Of a stretch of 64,000 nt of DNA, positions 3,782-53,594 are shown piece by piece. The stretch is taken from the NCBI GenBank assembly GCA_937863995.1, contig CALMIK010000009.1:31577-95576 (forward strand), given 5' to 3'. Positions within the stretch are counted from its first letter, which is position 1; each line of letters starts with the position of its first letter. Origin of the DNA: an uncultured Chelatococcus sp. GTDB lineage: Bacteria; Pseudomonadota; Alphaproteobacteria; Rhizobiales; Beijerinckiaceae. Made by a program: the position numbers and the translations under genes. Below the pieces are notes generated by a model. It worked only from the letters and a program-made list of their open reading frames with translations, was not told where the DNA came from and did no database searches.

Positions 3782-4414
3782 TCACGAAGAGCGGCCATGC
3801 GCTGACGTGTCTCCCGGCTGGACGCCGCCGCCGTATTCCAGCACCGCCATGGTGAACGAGACAGGCCCATCGCCTTCCGCGGCGTAGGAATGCGGCCGGT
3901 CAGTCACGAGCCGCCCTGCCTCGCCGGCGTGGAACAGCATCGCCTCGGAACCGACAGTCACCCGGAGACATCCTTGCGAAACCGACACAAGCTCGCGGGT
4001 GCCCCGGCTATGAGCGCCGGCGGTGTAGATGTCGCCCGGCGCGATGATCCACGACCAGATCTCGAACATCGTCTGCCCCGATGTCGAGGCATCGAGCCGC
4101 GCCTCGGTACCCCCTTCGCTCCGCCACAGAACGGTCGGACGCGTCCTCTCGATCGGTTCGTCGGGAGTAACCGGCGACGCGTCTTCCAGCAGGTCGGGCA
4201 CCGACATGGAGAACGCAGCGGCCAGGCGGCACAGCACTCCGATGCTCGGATTGGCCTGTCCCCGCTCTATGGCGACAACCGTGCCTTTCGACAGTCCCGT
4301 ACTGGCGGCAAGACCGTCGAGACTGAGCTTCCGCTCGTGGCGCAACGCCTTGACCCTGCCGGCCAGAGCCGCCCCTAGTTCGCGCTCGATTGCGCCGCCG
4401 ATCCCGTCGGTCAT
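3782..4414 (-). CDS. XRE-family HTH plus cupin transcriptional regulator (SutR/PuuR-like)
   Basis: HTH_3 region LSLDGLAASTGLSKGTVVAIERGQANPS followed by a cupin region (AHSRGTRE...DRPHSY). Confidence 0.9.
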   Translation of the reverse strand: MTDGIGGAIERELGAALAGRVKALRHERKLSLDGLAASTGLSKGTVVAIERGQANPSIGVLCRLAAAFSMSVPDLLEDASPVTPDEPIERTRPTVLWRSEGGTEARLDASTSGQTMFEIWSWIIAPGDIYTAGAHSRGTRELVSVSQGCLRVTVGSEAMLFHAGEAGRLVTDRPHSYAAEGDGPVSFTMAVLEYGGGVQPGDTSAHGRSS

Positions 4415-4461
4415 TATATTGACTTTTCCCGCATTTGCCTTCTATGGTCATTATAATGACC
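4409..4461. promoter_or_regulatory. Two candidate operator palindromes for the XRE-cupin regulator
   Basis: Perfect palindrome GGTCATTATAATGACC (4446-4461, contains TATAAT) and a 14/16 copy GGTCATTATATTGACT (4409-4424) over the regulator start codon. Confidence 0.7.
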
Positions 4462-4516
4462 GATCGGGATAATTCAACACGCGGCCCGAACGCCGCTCCC
4501 AGGAAGGAACCTCGCG

Positions 4517-5652
4517 ATGCGACTTGAAACCAGGGCGATCCACGCCGGGCGCGGCATCGATCCGGCGACGGGGGCGGTCAGCGCTCCTCTGCACACCAGC
4601 ACCACCTTCGAGCGTGGCGCGGATGGGAGCTTTCCCTCCGGATACGTATACACCAGAGACGCGAACCCGACCCGCGACGCATTCGAGATCGCGCTCGCGG
4701 CCCTTGAAAACGGCCATTCCGCGATTGCCTTTGCCTCGGGCATGGCTGCGATCGCGGCCGTCATCGAGTCATGCCCCGCAGACAGGAAGCGCATCATTCT
4801 GCCGCAGGACATGTACTTCGGCATCCGGTCGCTGATCGACGAGACCGACATCGGACATCGCTTCGATTTCGTGGCCATCGACATGCGCGATCTCGACGCG
4901 CTGCGCGACGGAGTGCGCGACGCCCCGACCGGGCTCGTCTGGATCGAGACGCCGTCGAATCCCCTTATCCGCGTGGTGGATATCGGAATGGCCTGCGCAA
5001 TCACCCATGAATCCGGGGCGCTGGCCGTCGTCGACAACACATGGGCTACGCCGGTCCTGCAGCAGCCGTTCGCGCTCGGAGCCGATGTCATCGTCCATTC
5101 GGCGACGAAATATATCGGCGGCCATTCCGATCTCATGGCGGGTGCGGTGGTGCTTCCAGCGGGGTCGCCGCTCGAACACCCGATCCGTATGATCCAGCGC
5201 CACAAAGGCAGCGTCGCCGCTCCCTTCGACTGCTGGCTCGCCCTGCGCGGCCTCCAGAGCCTTCCCGTGCGCATGCGCGCGCATTGCAAGGCTGCGCTTG
5301 AGGTCGCCGAAGCCCTTGATGCGCATCCGCAGTCGAGACCGTTCTCTTTCCCGGGCTGGCATCGGACCCCGGCCATGCATTGGCGAAGCAGCAGATGCAG
5401 GGATATGGCGCCATGCTCTCCTTCGTGGTGAAGGGCGGCGCGGAGGCGGCAATGAAGGTGGCCGCAGGGCTGAAGCTCGTCGTCCGCGCCACGAGCCTTG
5501 GCGGCACGCACTCGCTGATCGAGCATCGCGCCTCAATCGAGGGTCCGAAATCCTTGGCGCCGGCAGGCCTGCTGCGGGTTTCCGTCGGCCTCGAACACCC
5601 CCAGGACATCATAGAGGACTTCAGCGAGGCTCTCTCGGCCCTCGCTGGCTGA
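4517..5652 (+). pseudogene. Cystathionine gamma-synthase/lyase family PLP enzyme, frameshifted
   Basis: Contains YVYTRDANPT, VWIETPSNP, VVDNTWATP and HSATKYIGGHSD. One base is missing near 5329-5331. The other frame continues VETVLFPGLASDPGHALAKQQM...ATSLGGTHSL...LLRVSVGLE to TGA at 5652. Confidence 0.85.
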
Positions 5653-5688
5653 CGAAAAAGCGGGGCCGGCGCATGTGGCGCCGGCCCC
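5653..5688 (-). terminator. Rho-independent terminator for the autotransporter gene
   Basis: 11-bp stem GGGGCCGGCGC/GCGCCGGCCCC (5662-5688) followed on the minus strand by TTTTT. Confidence 0.75.
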
Positions 5689-5756
5689 TCCATTACGCAA
5701 ACGCTATCGCACTTGATTGTCCCCGCAGGGGGCTGGCGACCCCTCGCGGTTCTCCG

Positions 5757-8700
5757 TCAGAACTTCCAGTTCAGGTTGGCCTTGAAGCCGTGGTCCTGCG
5801 CGTCGTCGCCGAGCTGTCCCGTGTAGGAAATGCCCACCGTCACGGCGTCGCTGACAGCAGCATCGAGCCCCGCTTCCAGCACAGCGACGTCACGGGCCAC
5901 CGGCACGCTGGTCGTCGTGAACGCGCTGCCCTTGCTGAACCAGAAGGTCGACTCGGGCGTGATGTCGTCGAAGGCATGGCGCCAGCCGACGAGGCCGCGC
6001 ACCGTGGCCTTGGTGCTGCCCAGATCGAACGCCGCCGAGAGCCGCAGGCCCAACGTGGAGTAGGTCACGTCGGTATCGTCGCTCTTGCTGTACAGCGCCG
6101 CGGCGCCCCCGCGCTCGAAGAAGCCATCCGTGTGCAGGTTGACGTAGGCAAGACCGGCGAAGGGCTCGAGCGCGACAGCGCCGACATCGAACCGGTAACC
6201 CACCTCGCCGAACACCTGCGCGGTGTAGGCGTCATGCGAACCGTTCAGGAAGTCGCTGAAACCCGCGAAGCTCGCGGTGCGGTCGGTCGAGATGTCGTGC
6301 CAGGTGTAAGCGCCGCCGAAGCGCAGCGAAAACGCGTTCCACTGCCCGCCGCCGTAGAGGCCGATGTGGAAGTTGTCGCTTTCCGCCGACGAGAGCCGCG
6401 CATCGACATCGACATCCGTCCGGCTGTAGCCGGCCAGGGCGCCCAGGCGCCAGTTATCGCTCACCACCGCGTCGGCGCCGATGAAGAAGCCGCCCGTGGT
6501 GCGGTCGACATCGCCGGCGTTGACGTTGCCGTCCGTTTCGCCCCACGATCCGAAGCCCTGGCCCCAGAAGGCGTAGGGTGCGTTCGCAGGCGTCGGCGTC
6601 GGGGTGGGCAGCGCGCCCTTCGTCACCGGCTTTGCGGCATCGTAGGTCACTGCGGTGCCCACACCGTCCTGCGCCGCGCGCAGGCGGCCCAGCGCGGCGT
6701 CGCGCACGAAGCGGCTGTCCTCGATGGCGGCAGTCTTGACCGCGCTGTGGACCTCGCCCGAAAGAGCGTCGAAGGCGACAATGGCCTCCGGCGTGCTGAG
6801 GCCGACGACGGCGTTGTAGATGCCGCTGTCCGCCCCGGCGCTCTGAACGCCGACTGCCGCGGCCGCCTGGTTGCCCGTCTGCGCGATGGTGGCGAACGAG
6901 ATGTCGTTGCGCGTCAGCGTCAGGAAGGCATTCGTCGCGCCATAGGAGAGCGAGGGCGTCAGAAAGGCGAGATTCGACGTCACTCCGTCGAAACGCCCGG
7001 CAACGCCGCCGTTTGCCGTCAGCACGGTGTAGCGGGTGCGCGGATTGTAGCTGCCGGTTTCCGCCAGCACCTGCACGAGGCCGCCTTCGATGGTGGCCTT
7101 GCCGGTGACGGCAAGATGATCCGACAGTCCGGCCGCGTTCGCGTCCACGACATAATAGGAGCCAGCCGAGAAGGTGGCGTTGCCGGAAACGGTGAAGTTG
7201 CCGATGGAATGGCCGGGCGCGAACGCGCCGCCGCTCCTGACCACAAGTCCGGCCGCCGAGCCGGTGCCGTTGAGGGCTGCGCCCCGCTCGACGGTGACGG
7301 AAGAGTTCTTCAGCGCGCCGTCGATCGTGAGCAGGCCGCCGGTGACGTAGGTGGGGCCGCTATAGGTGTTCTGCCCGGTGAGCGCCAGCACGCCCGAGCC
7401 GTCCTTGGTCAGGCCGCCGGCGCCGCCGATGTCGTTGTTCCACGAATCCCGCGCGTGGAAGCCGCCCTTGGCGGCGTCCATCGTGACCGTCACGTTGCCG
7501 TTGAAGGCGCCATAGCCGTCGCCGGCCTTGAACAGGTCGAGACGCGCCCAACCCGAGCCATCGTCCAGCGGACCGCCGGAGGGCAGTTCCGTCGTCGCCA
7601 GCACGTCGCGGCGCTGGGCGGCGTTGAGGTAGGGGAAGCGCGTGGACAGCAGCACCTCGGCGCCCTCGGGCACCACGGGCGCGAGATCGGTGCGGCCGAC
7701 GCTGCCGAGACCGTAGGTCAGGCGGTAGGTGTAGTCGGCCTTGTTCTGCGCCTTGGTGGAGAAGCGGTCGGGCTCGCCGCTCGCGGCGCAGGCGGCGATA
7801 CTCGTGCCGCAACCGGTCTCGAGCAGCTTGCGCACGTCCGCCTGCGCGGTGGCGAACAATTCAGGCTGTTCCAGCATGACGCGCACGACGTTCTGCGTGG
7901 CGATGATGCGCCCGCCGATCACGTCGAGCGGGTAGTGCACGCCGAGCACGATGCGGCTGTTGCCGAATTCGGAACCGCGCGTCACGTTCTCCTGAAAACG
8001 CTCCGGCACGAGGACGGCGAACAGGAGAGAAGAGGAAAAGCCGGCAGCCGTGTGGCCGCTGGGGAACGCCGCGCTGCCCTTGAGCGAGGCGTTCAGGATG
8101 TCTTTGCCGCTGTCGACAGGGTTACCCACGAAGTCGATGCCGCTGAAGCGCTCGATGCTGCCGCTCCTGACCTGGAAGGGACGGGAGTTGCCGGCGGTAT
8201 TCGCGGCTTCGGCCGGCGGATTGTAAGCTTCGTCATAGATGTTGAAGCGGCCGCCCGTCGGCAGGCTGACGCCCTGCGCCGGCGTGTTGTGAACGGTGCC
8301 GTCGGCGAAGAAGGTCTTCGCGGCCTCGGAGTCCGTCATCGCGGCGCCGGAAACGGCATTGCTGAAGATTGCAGCGGCTGCGGCAGAGACGTTCGTCGTG
8401 TTGTAGGGGACGCCGTAACCGGCATAAGGAGATTTCGGATCGGGGAAAATAGTGACCTTTTCCCGATAAACCTTGTTCAACGCCGTTCCCAGGCCGTCGG
8501 CGACGAACTGGCCGTTGGTGAACGACAGGAACAATGCCGCCAGCGTGTTGTCGCTGAGCGCCTGCGCGCGCTGGGCGCCAGTGGAGCCGTTGTTGATGCC
8601 GATGACCGTCGCGAGATTGCGGTCGAGCGCATCCTTGCCGGCCTGCGTGTTCAGCAGCGTGCTGAACGGAGAGAGCGTGTTGATCGCCTTGATACTGGTC

Positions 8701-39999: not shown

Positions 40000-40800
40000 T
40001 CAGTTCGCGGCCGCACGCCGCCAGCGTTCGGCGTTCATCTCCCATGGCCGGATCAGCAGATGCTCCACCGCCAGCATCACAACCACGAAGGCAAGCGCGT
40101 AAGCGATCACGTGGGCGATCTGAAACAGCTGGAAATACATGTGGATGCGAAAGCCGATGCCGCTCGATCGGCCGAGGAACTCGACCACGAGCACGATTTT
40201 CCAGATCACCGCGATACCGTTGCGCGCGGCGACGATGAAAAACGGCGCCAGCTGCGGCACGACGATGTGACGCAAGCGCCGCCCGGCCGGCAGCCGCGCC
40301 ACCTGGGCCAGTTCGTCGAGCGCGGGGTCGAGGGCGCGCGCGCCCTGACGCATCGTGACCAGCACCATCGCCGTCTTGTTGAGCGTCACGGCGGTGATCG
40401 CCGCCACCTCGTTGAGGCCGATCCACAGGTAGCATAACACGATCAGCACCAGCGCCGGCAGGTTCAGGAACACCGTCACCCACGGATCGGCCCAGCGGTC
40501 CAGCCACGGACAGCGCCCCAGCAGAACGCCGAGCACCGACCCCGCCGCCATCGCCAGACCGAACGCGACGGCCACGCGCACGAGCGTCGCCAGAAGGTCG
40601 CGCGGCAGCCGCCCCGCAGCGACCTCGTCCGCGAACACCCGCGCGACGGTCCAAGGCCCGGGCAGCACGGACGGGTCGGCCTTCGCCGCCGCCAGCGCCG
40701 CCCAGAGCGCGATCAGGGCGAGGATCGACAGGACGAAAATCCCCAGCGAGGTATCGTTGGCCGAGGTTGTTGCCCCGCCGCCGGCCGATTTTCCGATCAT
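40000..40800 (-). CDS. NitT/TauT-family ABC permease (partner of 50055-51621)
   Basis: Contains LPGPWTV, LNLPALV and WKIVLVVEFLGRSSGIG. Confidence 0.85.
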   Translation of the reverse strand: MIGKSAGGGATTSANDTSLGIFVLSILALIALWAALAAAKADPSVLPGPWTVARVFADEVAAGRLPRDLLATLVRVAVAFGLAMAAGSVLGVLLGRCPWLDRWADPWVTVFLNLPALVLIVLCYLWIGLNEVAAITAVTLNKTAMVLVTMRQGARALDPALDELAQVARLPAGRRLRHIVVPQLAPFFIVAARNGIAVIWKIVLVVEFLGRSSGIGFRIHMYFQLFQIAHVIAYALAFVVVMLAVEHLLIRPWEMNAERWRRAAAN

Positions 40801-40848
40801 CGTTTTTCTCCCCCTCCACTATAGCCTCGGCGCGGCGTGGCCTGCCTC

Positions 40849-40863
40849 GCGACCTTGGTCGTA
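40849..40863. promoter_or_regulatory. PQQ-island operator motif, copy 1
   Basis: GCGACCTTGGTCGTA in the divergent intergenic region. Confidence 0.75.
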
Positions 40864-40958
40864 TGTCGCTCGGCGCGCCGCCAGCCTATCTTTTCGTCGG
40901 GGAATGCCGGCGAAAAAGAACCGGCTCCGGAAAGTACGGCCCCTGGAGGAAACAGCCG

Positions 40959-43064
40959 ATGGGGAGGAGACTGGCGCTCCGGCTGGCCGCAGCGCTGTTC
41001 GCGTTGTGCGCCGCCGCCTTGTGCGCGGTGGCGGCTCCGCTGCCGCGCGAGGCGCTGGCGCCGATGATCGTGCCGCCCTACGCGCTGGGGGAGCCGGTCA
41101 ACGACAAAGGCGTGTGGACGCTGCTCAACTCCGGCGGCGCCGAGGCCGGCTACGTGTTCGAGACCGGCCCGCTCGCGCCCCTGCCGGGCTTTTCCGGCGC
41201 GCCGATCGACATGCTGGTCATGCTCGATCTCGGCGGGCGCTTTCTCGACGTGCGGCTCATCGCGCACAACGAACCCATCTTCGTGTCCGGCCTGGGGGAA
41301 GCGCCGTTCCGCGCCTTTCTGGAGCAGTATCGGGGCCGTTCGATCCGCGAGCCGCTCGTCGTCGGCACCCCTTACGGCACGGGCGGGAGCGGGTCCGAAC
41401 AGGTGCATCTCGACGGCGTGACCAAGGCCACGGCGTCGGTGCGGATCGCGCACGATTCGATCATGGCCGCCGCCTTCACCGTCGCCCGCGAGAAGATGGC
41501 CGGCATCGGCAACGCAGCGCCCGTGCGTCCCGCTCCTTCAGTAGACGAAGCGCTCGACTGGCAGGCGCTGGTGGACCAGGGCCTTGCCCGCAACCTGCGC
41601 GTGACCAACCGCGAAGTCGACGCGGCCTTCGCCGGCACGATCTGGGCCGACGACGATCCCGAGGCGGCGTCCGACCCCGACGTGCTCTACCTCGATCTGT
41701 GGGCCGTGGACCTCGGCCCGCCCTCCGTCGCCCGCGCGGTGCTGGACGACGCCAGCCTCAAGGATCTGCGGCGCTTCCTCGATGTCGCGGGCGACGACGA
41801 GCCGCTGCTGCTCATCGAGGCCGGCCGCCATGGCCTCGTGTCCGACGAATTCGTGCGCAACACCGCGCCCGACCGCTTGCTGGCGGAACAGGGCGGACTG
41901 CCGCTCCCGCTGCGCGACGCCGATATGTCGGTCTCGACGCGCCCCGGCGTTCCCGAAGGCAAGGCGATGGTCCTGCGCATCGACAGGCGGCTTGGCTTCG
42001 ATCCCACGCACGACTGGACGCTGTTCGCCCTCGCCACCCGCGCCCATGGCATGCTGCAGCCCGAAAACGGCTCGAAGCGCTTTCCGCTCGTGCTGCGCGC
42101 CGACCCGCGCTTCTATACGCGCGTCGAGGTTGCCGAGGCGCTCCCGCCCTGGCGGGAGGCCATGCTGCACCGCAAGTACGATCTCGCCGCGCTCGCCCTC
42201 TTCCTGCTGCCGCTGCTCGCGGCGCTCGGTCCCGGCATGCGCCCTCTGGCGGGAAGCAAACATTTCACCCCTGCCCGGCTGGCGATCCTGGCTGTCATGA
42301 TCGGCCTTGTCGGCTGGTGGGGACAGGGTCAGCTCTCCATCGTCACTGTTCTTGCGACGCTGCGCGCGGCGGCGGGCAACGGCTCGCTCACCGTCCTGCT
42401 CTACGATCCGTTCTCGCTGGTGGTGTGGGCTGCGGCCCTCACCGGCTTCGTGCTGTGGGGCCGGGGCCTGTTCTGCGGCTGGCTGTGCCCCTTCGGCGCG
42501 ATGCAGGAATTCGCCCACCACGCCGGGCGTCTGCTGCGGCTGCCGGAATACAACCCCTCGCCGCGTTGGGACGCGCGGCTGAAAGCGGGCAAATACGTCG
42601 CGCTCGCGGGGCTGGTCGCCGTCGCCTTTCTGCTGCCCGACGAAGCGGAGCGGGTCGCCGAGATCGAGCCGTTCAAGACCGCCGTCACCACGGGCTTTCA
42701 GCGCGAATGGTATTATGTCGCTTACGCGGCGGGGTGGCTGGTGCTGGGCATGGTCACCTTCAAGGGGTTCTGCCGCTACGTCTGCCCGCTCGGCGCCCTG
42801 ATGGCGATAGGCGGCCTGCTGCGGCTGCGCAACTGGATACCGCGCCGGGCCGAATGCGGCTCGCCCTGCCAGCTATGCAAGGTGCGCTGCCGCTACGGCG
42901 CGATCGAGAAAACCGGAAAGATCGCCTATTCCGAATGTTTTCAATGCCTTGACTGCGTCACGATCCACGACGACACGGCGCAATGCGTTCCGCTGGTGCT
43001 GGCCGCGAAAAGGCGGCAAACGGGCGAGCGAGCAAGACGCGCGCCGCGGGAGGCCACGATATGA
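40959..43064 (+). CDS. NosR/NirI-like membrane protein with FMN-binding and 4Fe-4S domains
   Basis: GGAGG RBS; DGVTKATAS; CGWLCPFG; FCRYVCPLG; CGSPCQLCKVRC; CFQCLDC. Confidence 0.85.
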   Translation: MGRRLALRLAAALFALCAAALCAVAAPLPREALAPMIVPPYALGEPVNDKGVWTLLNSGGAEAGYVFETGPLAPLPGFSGAPIDMLVMLDLGGRFLDVRLIAHNEPIFVSGLGEAPFRAFLEQYRGRSIREPLVVGTPYGTGGSGSEQVHLDGVTKATASVRIAHDSIMAAAFTVAREKMAGIGNAAPVRPAPSVDEALDWQALVDQGLARNLRVTNREVDAAFAGTIWADDDPEAASDPDVLYLDLWAVDLGPPSVARAVLDDASLKDLRRFLDVAGDDEPLLLIEAGRHGLVSDEFVRNTAPDRLLAEQGGLPLPLRDADMSVSTRPGVPEGKAMVLRIDRRLGFDPTHDWTLFALATRAHGMLQPENGSKRFPLVLRADPRFYTRVEVAEALPPWREAMLHRKYDLAALALFLLPLLAALGPGMRPLAGSKHFTPARLAILAVMIGLVGWWGQGQLSIVTVLATLRAAAGNGSLTVLLYDPFSLVVWAAALTGFVLWGRGLFCGWLCPFGAMQEFAHHAGRLLRLPEYNPSPRWDARLKAGKYVALAGLVAVAFLLPDEAERVAEIEPFKTAVTTGFQREWYYVAYAAGWLVLGMVTFKGFCRYVCPLGALMAIGGLLRLRNWIPRRAECGSPCQLCKVRCRYGAIEKTGKIAYSECFQCLDCVTIHDDTAQCVPLVLAAKRRQTGERARRAPREATI

Positions 43065-43933
43065 ACCGCCGCCGTTTCATGACCATCTGCGCCGCCGTCG
43101 CGGCCTCGCCGGCGCTGGCGCAGACCCACAGCTGGCAGGCGCAGGCACTCGGCGGCACCGTCAGCATAGACCTGCGCGGCCCCCGCCCCCTCGCAGCAGA
43201 AACCGGGCGGGCGATCGCCGACGCCATCGAGGCGGTGGAGGCGGCTGCAAGCCTCTTCCGGTCGGATTCCGCCCTGTCGCGGCTCAACCGCGCCGGCCGC
43301 CTCGACCACCCGCCGCCCATGCTGCGCGATCTGCTGGCGCTGGCAAGCCGGATGCACGCGGCAACGGGCGGCGTGTTCGATGCCAGCGTCCAGCCGCTGT
43401 GGCAGGCGCTGGCGGAAGGAGCGGACCCCGCCGCGGCCCGCGCCCGCATCGGCTGGGAGCATGTCCGCGTCGGGACATCCGTCGTTCTGGGCAACGGACA
43501 GGCGCTGACGCTGAACGGCATCGCGCAGGGCTATGCCGCCGACAAGATCCGCGCGATGCTGCAAGGGGCGGGATACGAACAGGTGCTCGTGGACATGGGC
43601 GAGTACGCGGCGCTCTCCGGCCCGTTCCGCATCGGCGTCGAGGACCCTGAGCTTGGCCTGATCGCTATCCATGCGTTGCGCGGCGACGCCATAGCCACCT
43701 CCAGCCCCGGCGCGATGCGGCTTGGCGCGGGCGGCCACATTCTGGGCCCGGCAGGTCAGCAGCCTGTGTGGTCCACGGTGTCGGTGCAAGCCGCCAGCGC
43801 CGGCGTGGCCGATGGCCTCTCCACCGCGTTTTGCCTGATGGGCACAGCGGCGATCCGCACGGCGATGCGTATGCTGCCGGAAGTGTCGGCCGTCACGGCG
43901 GTGGATCTGAAAGGAGACGTGACGACGTTTTGA
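43061..43933 (+). CDS. apbE: FAD:protein FMN transferase with Tat signal
   Basis: Tat signal MNRRRFM; SLFRSDSALSRLN, LNGIAQGYAAD, DMGE, ATSS and ADGLSTA. Confidence 0.88.
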   Translation: MNRRRFMTICAAVAASPALAQTHSWQAQALGGTVSIDLRGPRPLAAETGRAIADAIEAVEAAASLFRSDSALSRLNRAGRLDHPPPMLRDLLALASRMHAATGGVFDASVQPLWQALAEGADPAAARARIGWEHVRVGTSVVLGNGQALTLNGIAQGYAADKIRAMLQGAGYEQVLVDMGEYAALSGPFRIGVEDPELGLIAIHALRGDAIATSSPGAMRLGAGGHILGPAGQQPVWSTVSVQAASAGVADGLSTAFCLMGTAAIRTAMRMLPEVSAVTAVDLKGDVTTF

Positions 43934-44883: not shown

Positions 44884-45570
44884 TTACTCCGTTGCCGAAA
44901 GGCCGACCGTCAGGATTTCGCCCGCCCTCTTCCAGCTTTCAGGGGCGTCGCCCAGCGTGCGTGCGGCCTCGTAGGCCACGCTGTCCGCCACCGGCGCGCC
45001 GGAAGCCGTCTTCACCTGGCTTGCAATGCCCTCGAGCTCCTTCTTCAGCGCCGCCGGGTCCGCCACCTTGCCGGAAGCCAGCTCGTTGCGGATCGCATGC
45101 AGGCGGGCGGCGTGGTCGTCGAGAGCGCCGTCCTCGGGGCGGCTTTCGATGTAGGTTCGGATGGCCCATGCCGCCTTCTGGCCGAGAATGTCGCCGAAGG
45201 CCGGCATCTTCGTCACTCCGTCCTGCGTATAGCCGTGGCGGAAGCGGTCCACGTACCATTCGTCGCCATGCTCCTCCGCCTCGACGAAGCGCAGGTCGGG
45301 AGCGAGGCCGCCGGAGACAACGCCCAGTCCGTGGCAGCGGGCGCAGTTCTGGGTGTAGCCCGACGCGCCGATCTCGACCGCCTTGAGCCAGACATCGTGC
45401 CCGGCCTTGGCCTCGCGGTACGGGTTCTCGGTCAGCCATTCCTCGCCCACTTCGGGCAGGCCGTCTGTGTTCATCGGCTGCGGGGCCACGTCACCGTGAG
45501 CAACGGCCAGACTGACCGTCGCCACGAGCGCCAGCGCGGCAAGGCCGCCGCGAATGCGGGTCCTGGACAT
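44884..45570 (-). CDS. pedF: Cytochrome c550 (PedF/ExaB-type electron acceptor)
   Basis: Contains HGDVAPQPMNT, the heme motif CARCH, APDLR and the axial KMPAF. Confidence 0.85.
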   Translation of the reverse strand: MSRTRIRGGLAALALVATVSLAVAHGDVAPQPMNTDGLPEVGEEWLTENPYREAKAGHDVWLKAVEIGASGYTQNCARCHGLGVVSGGLAPDLRFVEAEEHGDEWYVDRFRHGYTQDGVTKMPAFGDILGQKAAWAIRTYIESRPEDGALDDHAARLHAIRNELASGKVADPAALKKELEGIASQVKTASGAPVADSVAYEAARTLGDAPESWKRAGEILTVGLSATE

Positions 45571-45745: not shown

Positions 45746-46969
45746 ATGCGTAAAGCGTGTGCGCGGCAGGGGGCGAGAGCTTCCCTGCTCATGATGGCGC
45801 GGGCCATGGCGATCGCCACGGCGACTGTCGGGCCGGGAGCCGCCACACTGGCGACCGCTGCCGAAATCGCCGTTCCCCTGACGTATCTCAGGCAGGAAGT
45901 CGAGGCGCCCCCCGTCCTCTCCAACCTCGACCCCATCCCGGAAGACCTGGGCGTCGCCGGCGCGGAGGTCGCGCTCGCGGACACGAAGACCACCGGCCGC
46001 TTCCTCGGCCATGCCTACAGCCTGGAGGTGGTTTCGGTGGAACCGGGCGGCGACCTCGCCGGCGCGGCGAAAGCGGCGCTCGCGGCCTCGCCCGCGTTGT
46101 TCGTCGATGCGCCGGCCGACGACATCCTCGCCATCGCCGACCTGCCCGAGGCCGCAGGCAAGCTCATCTTCAACGTGGCGTCGGGCGACCGCAAGCTGCG
46201 CGACGGCGACTGCCGCGCGAACGTGCTGCACACAATCCCCGAGGACGCCATGCGCGCCGACGCGTTGATGCAGGTGCTGAAAGCCCGCCGCTGGACACGC
46301 ACCGCGCTCATCGTGGGGCCGAAGCCGCAGGACGCGGCTTTCGCGGCGACATTGCGCGCCTCGGCGGCGAAGTTCGGCGTCACGATCGCGGCCGAGAAGG
46401 CGTGGACGTTCGACACCGACCTGCGCCGGGCGGCCGGTCAGGAAATTCCGCTGTTCACACAAGGTTTTCCGGATCACGACATCCTGCTCGTGGCGGACGA
46501 GGCCGACGATTTCGCCCGCTACGTGGAGCACAACACCTGGCTTCCCCGCCCGGTCGCGGGCTCGGACGGGTTGCGCGGCGAGGGCTGGGCGCCGGTGCTG
46601 GAACAATGGGCCGCCGTGCAGCTCCAGAACCGTTTCGAGAAAGCGGCGAAGCGCGAGATGCGCAGCCGCGACTACGCCGCCTGGACCGCGCTGCGCACCG
46701 TCGGCGAAGCGGTGACGCGCACGAACTCCGCCGATCCCGCGACATTGCGCGGCTTCATCCTGTCGGATGCCTTCGCGCTCGACGGCTTCAAGGGCCGCAC
46801 GCTGACCTACCGCCGGTGGAACGGGCAGTTACGCCAGCCGATGGCGGTGGTGAATGCCCGGGCGCTGGTCGAGCTCGCGCCGCTCGAGGGCTACCTGCAC
46901 CAGATCAACGAGATGGACACGCTCGGCCTCGACAAGCCGGAAAGTGCCTGCAAAGCCTTTGGAGGATGA
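45746..46969 (+). CDS. ABC substrate-binding protein of the PQQ-ADH system (LutA-like)
   Basis: GGAGG RBS; LR..DCRANVLHTIP, MRADALMQ, LQNRFEK and FKGRTLTYRRWNGQLRQP. Confidence 0.8.
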   Translation: MRKACARQGARASLLMMARAMAIATATVGPGAATLATAAEIAVPLTYLRQEVEAPPVLSNLDPIPEDLGVAGAEVALADTKTTGRFLGHAYSLEVVSVEPGGDLAGAAKAALAASPALFVDAPADDILAIADLPEAAGKLIFNVASGDRKLRDGDCRANVLHTIPEDAMRADALMQVLKARRWTRTALIVGPKPQDAAFAATLRASAAKFGVTIAAEKAWTFDTDLRRAAGQEIPLFTQGFPDHDILLVADEADDFARYVEHNTWLPRPVAGSDGLRGEGWAPVLEQWAAVQLQNRFEKAAKREMRSRDYAAWTALRTVGEAVTRTNSADPATLRGFILSDAFALDGFKGRTLTYRRWNGQLRQPMAVVNARALVELAPLEGYLHQINEMDTLGLDKPESACKAFGG

Positions 46970-46970
46970 G

Positions 46971-47939
46971 ATGAAAACCCGCACCGGCCTCGCCGCGTTC
47001 CTCATGATGACCGCATTGCCGCTGGCGGCTGGCGCGGGCGAAATCTGGGTCACCAACGAAAAAGACGACACGATATCGGTCATCGATATCGACAAGCTGG
47101 AAGTCGTGCGCACGATCAAGACGGGCGAGCGCCCGCGCGGCATCACCTTCAGCTCGGACCACAGCCGCGTATACATCTGCGCCTCCGATAGCGACACCGT
47201 GCAGGTGATGGATCCCGCCACCGGCCAGGTTCTCCACGACCTCCCCTCGGGCGAGGACCCGGAGCAGTTCGTGCTCTCGCCCGACGACCGGCACCTGTGG
47301 ATCGCCAACGAGGACAACGCCGTGACCACGGTCGTCGATGTCGAAACCCGGCAGGTGGTGGCGCAGATCGATGTCGGCATCGAGCCGGAGGGCATGGCGA
47401 TCTCGCCCGATGGCAAGATCGCGATCACCACCTCCGAAACCACGAACATGGCCCACTGGATCGACACCGCCACCCACAAGGTTTTCGCCAACACCCTCGT
47501 CGACAGCCGCCCCCGCCACGCGGAATTCACCAAGGGAGGCAGCGAACTCTGGGTGTCGTCGGAAATCGGCGGCACGGTGACCGTGTTCAACACGGCGGAC
47601 CAAAGCGAAAAGGGCAAAATCCGCTTTGCGATCAAGGGCGTTAACCCGGACCTCATCCAGCCGGTGGGTTTCGAGTTCACCCCCGACGAAAAAACCGCCT
47701 TCGTGGCGCTCGGCCCGTCCAACCACGTCGCCGTGGTCAACGCCGAGACGCTGGAGGTCGAGAGCTACATCCTCGTCGGCCGCCGGGTGTGGCACCTCGC
47801 CTTTTCGCCCGACCACAGCAAGCTGTTCACGACGAACGGCGTTTCCGGCGATGTCACGGTAATCGACGTCGCGACGCGCGAACCCGTGAAATCGATCAAG
47901 GTCGGCCGCTTCCCGTGGGGCGCGGCGACACGGCCCTGA
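46971..47939 (+). CDS. YVTN beta-propeller protein (PedA1/LutB-like)
   Basis: Signal peptide, WVTNEKDDTISVID and repeated GxxPxG blades. Confidence 0.85.
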   Translation: MKTRTGLAAFLMMTALPLAAGAGEIWVTNEKDDTISVIDIDKLEVVRTIKTGERPRGITFSSDHSRVYICASDSDTVQVMDPATGQVLHDLPSGEDPEQFVLSPDDRHLWIANEDNAVTTVVDVETRQVVAQIDVGIEPEGMAISPDGKIAITTSETTNMAHWIDTATHKVFANTLVDSRPRHAEFTKGGSELWVSSEIGGTVTVFNTADQSEKGKIRFAIKGVNPDLIQPVGFEFTPDEKTAFVALGPSNHVAVVNAETLEVESYILVGRRVWHLAFSPDHSKLFTTNGVSGDVTVIDVATREPVKSIKVGRFPWGAATRP

Positions 47940-48001
47940 CGCAAGCGTTCCATAAACAACGGCATCCCGTGCATGCCGGAATCACATAAACGGAGGACTG
48001 A

Positions 48002-48454
48002 ATGAAGCGCATGACCGTGATCGCGGCCCTGATGGCAGCAACCCTGCCTTTCGGCGCATCGGCGAACGACGACGACGACAAGGGCAAGCTGGGCCTCGCG
48101 GGCCTCTTGTCGTCGCAGAACCGCGAGGTGCTGCCGAAGCTCACGCTTTCCGCCGGAGCGCCTCTGGCCGCGGCCCCGCTGAAGCTGAAATCCGGCAAGT
48201 ACTACAAGCTGCAGATCCAGGCCGACGGCAGCCAGGAACTCGCGCTGGAAGGGCCGGGCTTCTTCCGCTCCATCTGGGTCAACGAAGTTGTCATCGAGGG
48301 CATCGAGATCCGGCCGCTGGGCATCGATTCGCTGGAGTTCGACGAGGCGGGTGAGGCCGAGATCAGCTTCATCGCCATCAAGCCCGGCAGCTACCACCTG
48401 AAGGTACCCGGCACGACGGGCGATTTGCAGACCGTCGCCATCACCATCGAGTAA
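48002..48454 (+). CDS. Small exported acidic protein of unknown function (possibly cupredoxin-like fold)
   Basis: Signal peptide ending ASA, mature N-terminus NDDDD, FIAIKPGSY, and no Cys. GGAGG RBS. Confidence 0.75.
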   Translation: MKRMTVIAALMAATLPFGASANDDDDKGKLGLAGLLSSQNREVLPKLTLSAGAPLAAAPLKLKSGKYYKLQIQADGSQELALEGPGFFRSIWVNEVVIEGIEIRPLGIDSLEFDEAGEAEISFIAIKPGSYHLKVPGTTGDLQTVAITIE

Positions 48455-48462
48455 GCGGCCGT

Positions 48463-49200
48463 ATGCGGACGGACAGCAGAGCAGAAGGCCTCGTCGCCGA
48501 AGGGCTGACGCACGACTGGGGCGGAAAGCGCGCCCTGGACGATGTTGGTTTTTCGATTGCGGCAGGCCGGTTTTGCGCTCTGCTCGGGCCGAACGGCGCG
48601 GGGAAATCCACGCTGTTCGGCCTGCTGACGCGTCTCTTTGTGCCACGCACCGGCCGCATCGCCATCGCCGGACACGACCTTGCCCGCGAGCCGCTCGCCG
48701 CGTTGTCGCGCATCGGCGTCGTGTTCCAGCAATCGACGCTCGATCTCGACCTGACGGTGCGGCGCAACCTGTTTTACTTCGCCGCACTGCACGGCCTTTC
48801 CGGGCGCGAGGCGGAGGCGCGCGTCATGGCGGCGCTGGAGCGGCTCGGCATGGCGGAAAGAGCGCACGAGCGCGCCGGCGCGCTCAACGGCGGCCATCGC
48901 CGGCGCATGGAAATCGCGCGCGCATTGATCCACCGCCCGTCCGTGCTGCTGCTCGACGAGCCGACGGTCGGCCTCGACGCCGCCTCGCGCCGCGCGATTA
49001 CCGACCACGTCCATGCCCTCGCCCGCGACGAAGGCCTCACCGTGCTGTGGGCCACGCATCTCGTGGACGAGATCGCTTCGGACGACCGGCTGGTGATCCT
49101 GCACCGGGGCCGCGTGCTTGCCGATGGCGAGGCGGGAGACATCGGCGGCGCGGACCTGACCACCCGCTTCATCGCCCTCACCGATGGAGCGCCGGCATGA
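48463..49200 (+). CDS. ABC ATP-binding protein of the PQQ-ADH system (PedB/LutE-like)
   Basis: Contains GPNGAGKST, LNGGHRRR, LLDEPTVGLD and WATH. Confidence 0.88.
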   Translation: MRTDSRAEGLVAEGLTHDWGGKRALDDVGFSIAAGRFCALLGPNGAGKSTLFGLLTRLFVPRTGRIAIAGHDLAREPLAALSRIGVVFQQSTLDLDLTVRRNLFYFAALHGLSGREAEARVMAALERLGMAERAHERAGALNGGHRRRMEIARALIHRPSVLLLDEPTVGLDAASRRAITDHVHALARDEGLTVLWATHLVDEIASDDRLVILHRGRVLADGEAGDIGGADLTTRFIALTDGAPA

Positions 49201-50027
49201 CGGCTCCGCCGCGCGGCAACGCCGTTCGCGCAACCGCGCGTCACGCGCTGGTGGCGCTGGCCGCCATACTCCACCGCGAGGCGCTGCGCTTTCTGGGCCA
49301 ACGGGGCAGGCTCGTCGCGGCGCTGGTGCGGCCGCTGGTCTGGCTCATCGTGTTCGCTTCCGGCTTCCGCGCGGCGTTGGGGCTGTCGATCACGCCGCCC
49401 TACCAGACCTACATCACCTACGAAATCTACATCGTGCCCGGCCTCGCCGGCATGATCCTGCTGTTCAACGGCATGCAGTCTTCGCTGAGCCTCGTCTACG
49501 ACCGCGAGATGGGCTCCATGCGCCTGCTGCTGACCGCGCCGCTGCCGCGCTGGTGGCTGCTGCTGTGCAAGCTCATCGCGGGCGCGCTCATCTCCACGCT
49601 GCAAGCCTATGCCTTTCTCGCCATCGCCGCGGCCTGGGGAGTGCGCTTTCCGTGGTGGGGCTATCTCAATGCCCTGCCGGCGATCTTCCTGGCGGCACTC
49701 ATGCTGGGATCGCTCGGCATGCTGCTGTCCTCCCTGATCCGGCAGCTGGAAAACTTCGCCGGGGTGATGAACTTCGTCATCTTCCCGATGTTCTTCATGT
49801 CCTCGGCGCTTTATCCGCTGTGGAAGATGGCGGAAGCGTCGGCGCTCCTGCACGACATATGCGCCGCCAATCCCTTCACGCACGCCGTGGAGCTGATCCG
49901 CTTCGCGCTCTACGGACAGGCGAACTGGCTGGCGGCGGCGGTCACGCTCGGGGCGCTCATCGTGTTCGGAGCGGGTGCGATATGGGGCTACGACCCCGCA
50001 CGCGGCCTCGCGGCCCGCAAGGCGTGA
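49197..50027 (+). CDS. ABC-2 type permease of the PQQ-ADH system (PedC/LutF-like)
   Basis: Contains ALVRPLVWL, YIVPGL, LFNGMQSSLSLVYDREMG and NFVIFP. Confidence 0.88.
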   Translation: MTAPPRGNAVRATARHALVALAAILHREALRFLGQRGRLVAALVRPLVWLIVFASGFRAALGLSITPPYQTYITYEIYIVPGLAGMILLFNGMQSSLSLVYDREMGSMRLLLTAPLPRWWLLLCKLIAGALISTLQAYAFLAIAAAWGVRFPWWGYLNALPAIFLAALMLGSLGMLLSSLIRQLENFAGVMNFVIFPMFFMSSALYPLWKMAEASALLHDICAANPFTHAVELIRFALYGQANWLAAAVTLGALIVFGAGAIWGYDPARGLAARKA

Positions 50028-50054: not shown

Positions 50055-50678
50055 CTACTCGGCGTCCTCAAGTCGCGCCGGACGGCCGGCGAGCCGCAGT
50101 TGCCGGGATGCCAGCCGCCGCGCCTCGGCGGCGACATGGGTGACGAGGATCGTGGCCACCGGCGTCGTCTGCCGCAGCCGCTCGAACAGCGCCATCATGG
50201 CTTCCGCCAGCTCCGGGTCGAGACTGACGAACGGTTCGTCCATCAACAGCAACTCCGGGCGCGACGCGAAGGCACGGGCCAGCGCCAGCCGGCGCTGCTG
50301 GCCGAGCGATAGCTGGGCGGGAAAACGCGCTTCGCAGCCCGCAAGCCCCACGTCGCCCAGCCAACGCCGCGCCTCGGGCGCGGATATGCCAGCGATGATC
50401 GACAGATTCTGCGCCGCGTCGCGCCAAGGCAGCAGCGCCGGTTCCTGAAACACCATGGCGATGCGCGCCGGGGCTTGGAGACGCCCGTGAAAGCGCCGTT
50501 CCAGCCCGGCGATAATCCGCAGCAGTGTGGTCTTGCCGACGCCCGATGGGCCCGTCAGCGCCAAGGTCTCGCCGGGCGCAAGCGTCAGGGAGAGAGGGCC
50601 GAGCACATCACCCGGCCCGCCGCGCTCCAGGTCGAGGCGCAGGCAGGGCTCAGATGCCGGAATCGACGAAAACGCCAT
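50055..50678 (-). CDS. NitT/TauT-family ABC ATP-binding protein
   Basis: Contains GPSGVGKTT, VFQEPALLPW, LSLGQQRR and LMDEPF. The start is uncertain. Confidence 0.85.
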   Translation of the reverse strand: MAFSSIPASEPCLRLDLERGGPGDVLGPLSLTLAPGETLALTGPSGVGKTTLLRIIAGLERRFHGRLQAPARIAMVFQEPALLPWRDAAQNLSIIAGISAPEARRWLGDVGLAGCEARFPAQLSLGQQRRLALARAFASRPELLLMDEPFVSLDPELAEAMMALFERLRQTTPVATILVTHVAAEARRLASRQLRLAGRPARLEDAE

Positions 50679-51621
50679 CGGGCAGTTCCTTGAGGTCACC
50701 TGCGAGATCCGCGCCGCCGAGTTCGACCATCAGCCCCAGCAGCCGCTGCGCCGCCGCCCTGTCGACGGGCCCGGGCTTGGGTATCCCGTCCAGAAAGCCC
50801 GCCTTCAGGGCCGCGAACTCCGCGTCGGACGCCGCGTTCATCAGCGGCCGGATGCGGTCCCACGCCGCCGGATCGGAGGCGAGCTTGTCCTTGGCGGCGC
50901 GAGAGGCCGCAGCAAGCCCGGCGGCGAGGCCGGGATGCGCGCGCAATACCTCGCCGCGCACCACGTAGCCGAGAAGCGGCGTGTCGGGATCGAGGCCAAG
51001 CGCCGTCGCCGCCGCGGAAACGGTGATGAGCGGGCGCATGCCCGCCGCCTGCATCCTGGCGCCGAAATGCCAAAAATTGACGGCGGCGGCGAATTCGCCG
51101 CCGAGCGCCGCCTTGAAGATGAGCGGCGGCGCGCCGAAGACCTGCTCCGTCTGGCCGGCCAGATCGAAGCCCTCTGCCTGCCTGGCGTAGGCGCGCAGGA
51201 TCAGCCAGCTCTTGTCCACCGGGCCGCCGGCGACCCCGATCCGTTGTCCGCGCAGATCGGCAAGCGCTTTCGCGCCGCTCCCGCCCGGCACCAACAGCGC
51301 GCCGACGGCGCGGGAATATGGGATGAACACGACATCGCGGCCGGCGGCGCGCTCACGCGCGACCCAGAGCCAGTCGGAGACGATCACGTCCACCTCCCCG
51401 GCCATCAGCGCGATCTGCGCGGCCGGCGTTCCCGCCATGTCCGTGACGGCGAGCGAAAAGCCGTTGGCCTTGTCGAAGCCGTTGTGGCGGATGGTGTCGA
51501 CTTCCCAGTTGACGGTGCCCGTAAGCTGAAGCGCCGCCCGCAGGCGCGGATGCTCCGCCAGCGCCGCCGAACAGGATAACGCGACCGCGACCGCCGCCCC
51601 GACAAGCGCCCGGATGTTCAT
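50650..51621 (-). CDS. NMT1/TauA-like substrate-binding protein, PqqT-like (candidate PQQ binder)
   Basis: Signal peptide; [22 protein letters not shown] and PYSRAVG; divergent from the PQQ-ADH gene. Confidence 0.75.
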
Positions 51622-51672
51622 GCCAATTCCTCCTTTTTTCCTGTATCCTATTGGCAATACGGCAGCGGGATA

Positions 51673-51728
51673 TACGACCAAGGTCCCGTATCGGATGCCG
51701 GCCCGCGGGCAATGTTACGACCAAGGTG
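51673..51728. promoter_or_regulatory. PQQ-island operator motif, copies 4 and 5
   Basis: TACGACCAAGGTC (51673-51685) and TACGACCAAGGTG (51716-51728), 43 bp apart. Confidence 0.78.
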
Positions 51729-51827: not shown

Positions 51828-53594
51828 ATGAAACGGTTCTTGCTGGCCGCTGTCACGGCCATGGCCTGCGTCGGAATGGCCCAGGCACAGGTGACTGAAG
51901 AAGATCTGGCGAACGACGCCGAAACCGTCAACAACGTGCTCACGAACGGCCTCGGCCGGGGGTTGCAGCGCTACTCGCCCCTGCAGACGCTCAACAAGGC
52001 CAACGTGAAGGGCCTCGTCCCGGCATGGGCCTTCAGCCTCGGCGGCGAAAAGCAGCGCGGGCAGGAAAGCCAGGCGATCGTCTACGACGGCGTGATGTAT
52101 ATCACCGGTTCCTACAGCCGCATCTTCGCCATCGACGTCGCCACCGGGCGCAAGCTGTGGCAGTACGACGCTCGCCTGCCCGAGGGCATCCTGCCCTGCT
52201 GCGACGTCGTCAACCGCGGCGCGGCGATCTTCGGCGACAACGTCTATTTCGGCACGCTCGACGCGCGTCTCATCGCGCTCAACCGCAAGACCGGCCGCGT
52301 GGTCTGGAACAAGAAGCTCGCCGAGTACAAGGAAGGCTATTCGTACACCGCCGCGCCGCTCATCGTGAAGGGCCTCGTCATCACCGGCAATTCCGGCGGC
52401 GAGTTCGGCGTGGTCGGCGAGGTGCAGGCTCGCGATGCGGCCACGGGCGAGCTGGTGTGGTCGCGCCCCACCATCGAAGGCCACAAGGGCACCTTCAAGG
52501 GTAAGGAATCGAGCACCACCGGAACCCTCAACGCCACCTGGCCGGGCGATGCGTGGAAGACCGGCGGCGGCGCGACGTGGCTCGGCGGCTCCTATGACGC
52601 CGACACCGACACGCTCGTCTTCGGCGCCGGCAACCCCTCGCCGTGGAACAGCCATCTGCGCGGCGCCGGCAAGCCCATGGAAGGCAACAAGGGCGACAAC
52701 CTCTACGCCGCCAGCCGTCTCGGCATCGACCCCGCGACCGGCGAGATCAAGTGGCACTTCCAGACCACCCCGCGCGAGGGCTGGGATTTCGACGGCGTGA
52801 ACGAGGTCGTGCCCTTCGTCGCGGCGGACGGGACGAAGCGCTACGCCACGGCCGACCGCAACGGCTTTTTCTACATCCTGAACCGCGAGGACGGAAAATA
52901 CGTCAATGCCTGGCCGTTCGTGAAGAACATCAACTGGGCCAAGGGCATCGACAAGGACGGCCGCCCGATCTTCAACGAAGAGAACCGCCCCGGCGATCCC
53001 GCCGCCGCGGCAGACGGCGCCAAGGGCCAGCAGATCTTCTCCGTGCCGTCCTTCCTCGGCGGCAAGAACTGGATGCCCATGGCCTATAGCCAGAAGACCG
53101 GGCTGTTCTACGTGCCTTCCAACGAATGGGGCATGGACATCTGGAACGAGCCGATCAACTTCAAGAAGGGCGCTGCCTTCCTCGGCGCGGGCTTCACCAT
53201 CAAGCCCCTGTTCGAGGACTACATCGGCAGCCTGAAGGCGATCGACCCGAACACCGGCGACATCAAGTGGGAATACAAGAACGGCGCGCCGCTGTGGGCG
53301 GGCGTGATGACCACCGCCGGCGGACTGGTCTTCACCGGCAATCCGGAAGGCGAGTTCCTCGCGCTCGATGACGAAACCGGCGAAGTGCTGTGGAAATTCC
53401 AGACCGGGTCGGGCATCGTGGGCCAGCCGGTGACGTGGGAACAGGACGGCGAGCAGTACGTCTCCGTCATCTCCGGCTGGGGCGGCGCGGTGCCGCTGTG
53501 GGGCGGCGAAGTGGCGAAGAAGGTCAACTACCTCAACCAGGGAGGCATGGTCTGGACCTTCCGCCTGCCGAAGGAACTGGCCAAGGCCAACTGA
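51828..53594 (+). CDS. pedH: PQQ-dependent alcohol dehydrogenase, lanthanide type (PedH/ExaF-like)
   Basis: Signal peptide ending AQA, vicinal [16 protein letters not shown], the active-site WDFDGVNE (D-x-D) motif, and GGKNW. Confidence 0.88.

Follow-up and report, generated by a model that had tools for sequence, protein, structure and literature searches.

The window analysed here, a stretch of 64,000 nucleotides, carries on its plus strand a gene for a small protein of 150 amino acids, which is the third gene of the operon pedA1-pedA2-target-pedB-pedC (Table 1). The start codon of this gene is preceded, at a distance of 8 nt, by a GGAGGA ribosome-binding site. Neither a sigma-70 promoter nor a plus-strand terminator was found inside the operon, and the spacer between pedA2 and the target gene folded no better than shuffled sequence. 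Like the gene for cytochrome c-550, a gene for a MoxJ-like binding protein is divergent from the operon and lies upstream of pedA1, and a gene for a LuxR-type regulator lies downstream of the operon, alongside that for the PQQ alcohol dehydrogenase. That the small gene sits in a lut-type locus had been proposed in the original prediction; the family assignments of the two genes flanking it (TIGR03866 and TIGR03864) and the D-x-D motif of the nearby alcohol dehydrogenase bore this out.

The same PQQ island harbors a second ABC system, of the NitT/TauT type, on the minus strand at positions 50055-51681 and 40000-40800 of the window; its parts are an NMT1-like binding protein, an ATPase and a distant BPD_transp_1 permease. 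In many related loci, the stretch from pedC to the dehydrogenase gene likewise contains the genes for this binding protein and ATPase, recorded there as TauA/TauB matches. A short distance upstream in the island, positions 40767-43933 of the window encode a NosR-like Fer4_5 membrane protein and an ApbE flavin transferase.

Table 1. Genes of the operon and its surroundings and features of the target protein, with positions in the window.
Feature	Position	Strand	Basis
lutC-like gene; 150-aa precursor, predicted secreted copper-less cupredoxin	48002..48454 (including stop codon)	+	ORF, homologues, AF2, Foldseek
Predicted Sec signal peptide, residues 1-21, MKRMTVIAALMAATLPFGASA	48002..48064	+	Read from sequence
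Acidic tail N22-D23-D24-D25-D26, N-terminal in the mature protein	48065..48079	+	Sequence, alignment
Predicted cupredoxin-like beta-sandwich domain, residues ~40-150	48119..48451	+	AF2, Foldseek
D75-G-S-Q-E79 loop	48224..48238	+	E79 directly before first His copper-ligand position (alignment A4)
E112-F-D114-E115-A-G-E-A-E120 acidic motif	48335..48361	+	Conservation across identity tiers
V135-PGTTGDLQ143 loop, probable remnant of the Cys-His-Met copper-ligand loop	48404..48430	+	Alignment A4
pedA1/lutA, periplasmic substrate-binding protein gene	45746..46969	+	TIGR03863, E=9.5e-141, above curated cut-off
pedA2/lutB, YVTN beta-propeller gene	46971..47939	+	TIGR03866, E=1.2e-155; 62 nt upstream of target
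pedB/lutE, ABC ATPase gene	48463..49200	+	TIGR03864, E=3.2e-103; starts 8 nt past target stop codon
pedC/lutF, ABC-2 type permease gene	49197..50027	+	PF01061 ABC2_membrane, E=5.9e-30, and synteny; ATGA overlap with pedB
PQQ alcohol dehydrogenase gene, lanthanide-type D-x-D motif GWDFDGVNE	51828..53594	+	TIGR03075, E=4.6e-229; motif in translation
Cytochrome c-550 PedF gene, divergent from the pedA1 operon	44884..45570	-	TIGR04494, E=6.1e-56

The precursor begins with MKRMTVIAALMAATLPFGASA, followed after the predicted cleavage site by NDDDDKGK, and this N terminus shows an n-region with K/R residues, a hydrophobic core and an A-S-A cleavage motif; inspection of the signal peptide sequence revealed neither a twin-Arg motif nor a lipobox Cys. 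The mature protein of about 129 amino acids (about 13.7 kDa, pI 4.7) contains no Cys, no Met and a single His that is not conserved. These data confirmed the predicted small, acidic, exported protein, the mature form of which starts with NDDDD (NDDDDK in full). The protein further contains the stretch DSLEFDEAGEAE (residues 109-120), with the motif EFDEAGEAE, and the segment FIAIKPGSY (residues 123-131). A search of the target against Pfam (E≤1) and NCBIfam (E≤10) gave no family match, and its profile produced chance matches alone (E>0.7), none of them to landiscernin, against the sequences in the PDB.

Homologues of the target were nonetheless abundant. At E≤1e-3 we retrieved 995 of them, all about 150 amino acids long; a library of 1.8 billion proteins contained 298 family clusters at 50% identity, and a search with the family alignment (A3) placed relatives in at least 578 species genomes. 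An alignment of 30 sequences contained 49 invariant columns, including D75, E79, E95, E102, D109, E112, D114 and E120. On the strength of the homologues, the species genomes and the invariant columns, the target ORF is a real gene and not a chance ORF. The family was found in Rhizobiales, Rhodobacterales, small marine alphaproteobacterial genomes and another proteobacterial class, and a distant member (P0139) used as the query recovered homologues in Dongiaceae, Inquilinus and Rhodomicrobium, with no Methylobacterium among the matches. In the source records the homologues are annotated as 'hypothetical', 'cupredoxin domain-containing', 'copper-binding protein' or 'MSP domain'. Three giant proteins of 2014-5070 amino acids (P0199, P0203 and P0251) carry 13-19 repeated stretches that match the family profile; these stretches probably represent a related beta-sandwich domain in tandem copies of the kind known from adhesins.

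In P. putida, the four-gene operon PedA1A2BC is required for rare-earth-dependent growth (PMC6839425), and in M. extorquens the corresponding LutABEF are required for lanthanide-dependent growth (PMC7391723, PMC6850437). One of the two hypothetical genes that separate the transporter genes in M. extorquens PA1 was reported to have a putative cupredoxin fold (Ochsner 2019, PMC6850437), and the genes of the AM1 cluster have been named lutA-B-C-D-E-F-G-H (Roszczenko-Jasinska 2020, PMC7391723). Genomes from the taxonomic family of the window show exactly this order, as in locus L124, where lutA and lutB are followed by the gene for a 141-aa target homologue, by an 80-aa gene overlapping lutE, by lutE and lutF themselves and by genes for a LutG-like protein and a TonB-dependent receptor. 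The 141-aa protein in the lutC position (L124, 4918-5340) aligned with the target at a BLASTP E value of 5e-23 and 48% identity over 79 aa, and the 80-aa protein in the lutD position matched landiscernin (PDB 9c8w, E=5e-19). The L124 homologue thus fits both the published hypothetical gene with the cupredoxin fold (PMC6850437) and lutC (PMC7391723). Since a homologue of the target occupies the lutC position of a LanD-containing lutA-H cluster, the target is very probably a LutC-family protein of the lut/ped operon, the comparison having been made through the L124 gene and not with the AM1 protein itself. The target shares with the family the pedA1A2BC/lutABEF operon, homology to the protein in the lutC position and export of a protein with a predicted cupredoxin fold.

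In consequence, one element of the original prediction had to be abandoned, namely that the protein is new. It is not a new kind of protein but a member of the LutC family, which has already been named and genetically probed (PMC7391723), and a putative cupredoxin fold had been noted before for one of the two hypothetical genes in PA1 (PMC6850437). Deletion of lutC in M. extorquens caused a mild defect during growth with La, with a lag of 9 h and a growth rate of 0.11 h-1 compared with 0.16 h-1 of the wild type (PMC7391723). The prediction had also located the gene where lut loci encode small lanthanide-handling proteins. This was correct insofar as the target occupies the same operon position as LanD; however, LanD is an unrelated three-helix bundle and is absent here. 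The product of lutD, LanD or landiscernin, is a 6.8-kDa three-helix-bundle lanthanide binder encoded by a gene that overlaps the ATPase gene, and it holds Ln3+ at a surface site with only four protein ligands (PMC11551332). The possibility that the target itself is a landiscernin was rejected, given its all-beta model and the lack of a landiscernin match in the PDB profile search.

To place the protein structurally, we modeled it by AF2 from the family alignment. The model is an all-beta sandwich with strands at residues 41-149, a mean pLDDT of 82 and values of 82-97 in the core blocks; residues 1-28 had low pLDDT. Foldseek matched it in the PDB to the cupredoxin domains of Cu-nitrite reductase, laccase, CuA and NosZ, with E values from 7e-7 to 3e-5 and a TMq of about 0.5. 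The modeled fold of the target is therefore a cupredoxin Greek-key beta-sandwich, and the structure prediction with Foldseek that had been proposed as a check agreed with the cupredoxin-like FIAIKPGSY strand. The same model, together with the absence of a Pfam EF-hand match at E≤1, agrees with the earlier statement that the protein has no EF-hand, and the target was rejected as a lanmodulin or another EF-hand binder.

The relationship to cupredoxins could also be followed in sequence. A group of copper-binding cousins (L153-L162) matched the family profile at E values of 1e-17 to 1e-25, scored above the cut-off for PF13473 Cupredoxin_1 as well as matching PF00127, and retained the full His...Cys...His...Met ligand set; as judged from these matches, the cousins are a bridge from the LutC family to Pfam Cupredoxin_1. 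In an alignment of the target family with the cousins (A4), the Cys ligand fell inside a 2-residue deletion of the LutC family, the positions of the His ligands corresponded to L80 and T138 of the target, and that of the Met ligand corresponded to Q143, a position at which many distant LutC members have Met. An hhalign comparison of the family profile with a pseudoazurin encoded elsewhere in the window was not significant (E=0.2), although it aligned the same ligand loop. Collectively, these observations are best explained by descent of LutC from blue-copper proteins (cupredoxins) with loss of the copper ligands.

With the fold established at this level, we had to consider that LutC might be a blue-copper protein carrying electrons among the alcohol dehydrogenase, cytochrome c-550 and the respiratory chain. 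The cupredoxin fold, the records that name homologues as cupredoxin domain-containing or copper-binding proteins and the presence of the pseudoazurin gene in the window would all accommodate such a carrier. However, the mature target has neither Cys nor Met, all 89 members of the close subfamily are free of Cys, and a type-1 copper site is excluded by the deletion at the Cys ligand and by the substitution of both His ligands, as the original prediction had anticipated from the missing Cys. We consider a redox role exceedingly improbable and rejected it on the grounds that the copper ligands are absent from the sequence.

The cousins have a neighborhood of their own. In two Pfam-scanned loci from another proteobacterial class (L157, 7509-8908, and L162, 7468-8825), the gene for the cousin, a true copper cupredoxin, is followed by one for an EB_dh ethylbenzene-dehydrogenase-type haem-domain protein and preceded by one for a GGDEF or GGDEF-EAL sensor, and a similar neighbor of about 290 aa lies beside the copper-binding cousin in L159 and L160. 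This neighborhood may constitute a periplasmic redox-sensing module for c-di-GMP signaling.

We then compared the genomic surroundings of lutC in 80 fetched loci (Rhizobiaceae, Rhodobacterales and Pelagibius). The PedA2 gene lay directly upstream of the target homologue in 79 of the 80 loci, the genes for PedB/PedC lay directly downstream in 71, and a D-x-D dehydrogenase was encoded inside the fetched span in 67, so the co-occurrence with such dehydrogenases that had been suggested as a check was indeed observed. The sole exception with respect to PedA2 was a locus of a Roseovarius MAG (L068, 3582-9940), in which inserted TauA/TauB-like genes separate pedA2 from lutC. In broader samples the position of lutC varied: it followed pedC in 11 loci, preceded pedA1 in one (L134), occurred in the order LutC-A2-A1 in three and was divergent from pedA1A2BC in three loci of another proteobacterial class. 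Despite this shuffled gene order, the linkage of lutC to the PedA1A2BC genes is very strong. Among 401 alphaproteobacterial genomes, a strong LutC match was present in 23, of which 22 also encoded PedA2, compared with 58 of the 401 overall (Fisher p=1e-19). The converse did not hold, as pedB directly followed pedA2 in 50 of the 63 PedA2-positive genomes of the taxonomic family of the window; the many loci arranged in this way indicate that LutC is an optional accessory of the transporter. LutC is also dispensable for core transport, because P. putida (PMC6839425) and many genomes of the same taxonomic family as the target run pedA1A2BC without it and because the defect of the lutC deletion is mild.

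LutC was far more common than LanD in the sampled genomes, and no LanD was present in the window, elsewhere in the genome or in any of the 80 close loci. Where both occur, their genes are repeatedly adjacent. Pairs of LanD-like and LutC genes isolated from pedA1A2BC were found on the minus strand of L127 (about 5074-6850) and L163 (7345-8174); L127 contains two LanD-like copies, and its PedA2 gene is on the opposite strand at a distance of about 9 kb. In loci of high GC content, the picking of ORFs near orphan family members was unreliable and served only to spot a LanD-like C terminus. Such isolated pairs connect LutC with a protein proven to bind lanthanides and suggest that the two constitute a separate module.

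Loss of conservation of the acidic residues had been named in the original prediction as an outcome that would speak against it. We therefore divided 189 distinct family members into tiers by their identity to the target and found the opposite: in every tier, at least 85% of the members had an acidic residue at the positions of E79, E102, E112 and D114. The values for E79 were 100, 92 and 85% in the close, mid and far tiers, respectively, and E112 and D114 reached at least 86% in each. Position 115 was acidic in 59-96% across the tiers, and position 141 (D/E) in 99% of the close and 72% of the mid-tier members. Since E102 and E112 are kept in the copper-binding cousins as well, these two may be structural residues and not metal ligands. 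E79, D114 and E115, in contrast, distinguish LutC from the cousins, which do not keep D114 and E115, and D/E141 and Q143 lie in the old copper-ligand loop. Topology and the ligand alignment would place the 114-117 loop at the 'northern', formerly copper-binding end, with the carboxylates clustered there.

The acidic character is particularly pronounced in the close subfamily of the target, which has a median net charge of -15 and a pI of 4.15. In 70 of its 89 members, but in only 1 of 24 and 4 of 59 members of the more distant tiers, the first 10 residues of the mature protein included at least three D/E. The poly-Asp tail is absent from LanD-linked LutCs and also from most LanD-free LutCs of other operon arrangements, and for the latter reason we regard it as a trait of the subfamily and not as a simple replacement for LanD. 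Taken together, E79, D114, E115 and D/E141, along with the poly-Asp tail of the subfamily, suggest either a site for a hard cation or an acidic docking face.

A docking face would be in keeping with a metal-free LutC that acts as a protein-protein adaptor, its acidic 'northern' face binding a basic partner (PedA2/LutB, PedA1, the periplasmic loops of PedC or the dehydrogenase) and thereby assembling or stabilizing the periplasmic part of the transporter. Cupredoxins dock to their partners by the 'northern' face, and the cupredoxin domain of NosZ packs on a beta-propeller. In the operon, PedA2 followed by the cupredoxin (window 46971-48454) mirrors this propeller and cupredoxin architecture of N2O reductase; NosZ was among the Foldseek matches of the target, PedA2 weakly matched an L-NosZ model and PedBC is of the ABC-2 type. 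A search for a relationship of LutC to NosZ in sequence gave none, and the resemblance is a structural analogy only. The linkage of LutC is also tighter to PedA1/PedA2 than to PedBC, as seen in the LutC-A2-A1 order of three loci and in six full-length loci (L005, L027, L041, L047, L064 and L066; target homologue at about 8001-8450 or 4192-4545) that keep pedA1-pedA2-lutC without adjoining pedB/pedC. In four of the six genomes with such a split locus, a PedB orthologue above the TIGR03864 cut-off was present elsewhere, which indicates that the periplasmic and membrane halves are separable. An adaptor would further agree with the conservation of the N-terminal segment G-x-L-A/S...LP.L across the tiers and with the mild phenotype of the lutC knockout (PMC7391723). 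However, it leaves unexplained why LutC recurs next to LanD away from the transporter and why the LanD-free subfamily carries an extreme net charge and a poly-Asp tail, and no fusions of LutC with PedA2 or PedA1 were seen among the family clusters. We regard the adaptor as possible, though rather unlikely.

The reading we prefer, which we judge to stand at about an even chance of being correct as a whole, is that LutC assists lanthanide acquisition in the periplasm without being essential for it, binding Ln3+ or a Ln-chelate at a weak oxygen-donor site at the former copper end and handing it on. LutC would be co-transcribed with pedA1-pedA2-pedB-pedC (lutA-B-E-F) and exported by Sec, and the ABC system PedA1A2BC would here serve the D-x-D, lanthanide-type PQQ alcohol dehydrogenase. 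Ln3+ or a Ln-chelate would be held transiently on a surface site made up of E79, D114, E115 and D/E141, with Q78 and Q143, to which the flexible N-terminal poly-Asp tail would add in the subfamily of the target. The metal may thus travel from its entry through the outer membrane via LutC to the PedA1 binding protein, the PedA2 propeller, the PedBC importer or the dehydrogenase. In clusters of the Methylobacterium type LutC is paired with the proven lanthanide binder LanD, whereas the present genome lacks LanD and has a more acidic LutC. The operon context, the frequency of D-x-D dehydrogenases in the related loci and the isolated LanD-LutC pairs speak for a lanthanide role, and the link of LutC to lanthanide uptake is well supported; the role of a 'lanthanide chaperone', with the putative binding that it entails, is plausible but unproven.

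Alternatively, LutC may bind another ligand of the pathway, such as Ca2+, a lanthanophore/siderophore-metal complex or PQQ, and take part in the cofactor loading of PQQ dehydrogenases generally. NCBIfam names TIGR03863, TIGR03864 and TIGR03866 for a PQQ-dependent alcohol dehydrogenase or catabolism system, the window contains the second ABC system in the PQQ island, and the true substrate of PedA1A2BC lacks a biochemical definition (PMC6839425). On the other hand, every neighboring dehydrogenase seen in the close loci was of the D-x-D lanthanide type, genetics tie the transporter to lanthanide-dependent growth (PMC6839425, PMC7391723), and the tiered family alignment revealed no conservation of aromatic or basic residues fit for a PQQ pocket. 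Such a ligand therefore seems improbable to us.

Within the preferred reading of LutC as a lanthanide accessory, a more specific version can be advanced tentatively, as its chance of being right is well below even. A cupredoxin may have been repurposed, its soft N2S(S) copper site having been rebuilt as a hard oxygen-donor site (E79, Q78, D114, E115, D/E141 and Q143) with weak but selective binding of Ln3+, so that in LanD-free bacteria such as the present one PedA1A2BC would be fed by a single periplasmic lanthanide chaperone, namely LutC with its poly-Asp tail. Lanthanide uptake is a young field, and to our knowledge only lanmodulin and LanD have been characterized as periplasmic lanthanide-handling proteins. 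If this version is true, LutC would represent the third structurally distinct class of natural lanthanide-binding proteins after the EF-hand lanmodulins and the helical LanD. Direct binding of a lanthanide would also make LutC a new engineerable beta-sandwich scaffold for rare-earth separation and would help to explain how lanthanides are handled in non-methylotrophs without LanD. If LutC is an adaptor instead, it would provide a clue to the assembly of an unusual importer composed of a substrate-binding protein, a propeller and an ABC-2 system. For annotation, we propose 'LutC-family copper-less cupredoxin' in place of 'hypothetical' or 'copper-binding protein'.

The target can be set against four known systems. 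With type-1 cupredoxins (plastocyanin, pseudoazurin and amicyanin; PF00127, PF13473) it has in common the predicted Greek-key beta-sandwich, and their C-terminal motif P-G-x-Y...G-M-x-G-x-h-x-V is recognizable in many members of the LutC family. These proteins, however, bind copper by a His-Cys-His-Met (or Gln) ligand set, from which the target lacks Cys and both His and has Gln at the axial Met position, and the genomic context of the target is a transporter and not a redox chain. LanD (PDB 9c8w) and the target are alike in being small, acidic and periplasmic and in having their genes directly before that for the ABC ATPase of the lanthanide importer. No sequence similarity between the two was found, and LanD is a disulfide-stabilized three-helix bundle of about 60 residues and 6.8 kDa, whereas the target is a Cys-free protein of 13.7 kDa that is predicted to be all-beta.

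The PedA1A2BC system of P. putida KT2440 shares with the target operon the four flanking families (TIGR03863, TIGR03866, TIGR03864 and the ABC-2 permease). As described, it is without a LutC-type gene (PMC6839425), while in the target operon this gene is a fifth one placed between pedA2 and pedB. The closest parallel is LutC of M. extorquens (MexAM1_META1p1780 / Mext_1848 region), which, like the target, is a small, exported protein encoded between the genes for LutB/PedA2 and the ABC ATPase. The identity of the target to the homologue in the lutC position of L124 is only about 48% over the core, and in comparison with M. extorquens LutC the target is more negatively charged and carries the poly-Asp tail at its N terminus. 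Unlike the lut cluster of M. extorquens, the target operon has no adjoining lanD, lutG or lutH, and it is situated in an island with an ExaF/PedH-type ethanol dehydrogenase, whereas the lut genes of M. extorquens belong to a XoxF methanol island.
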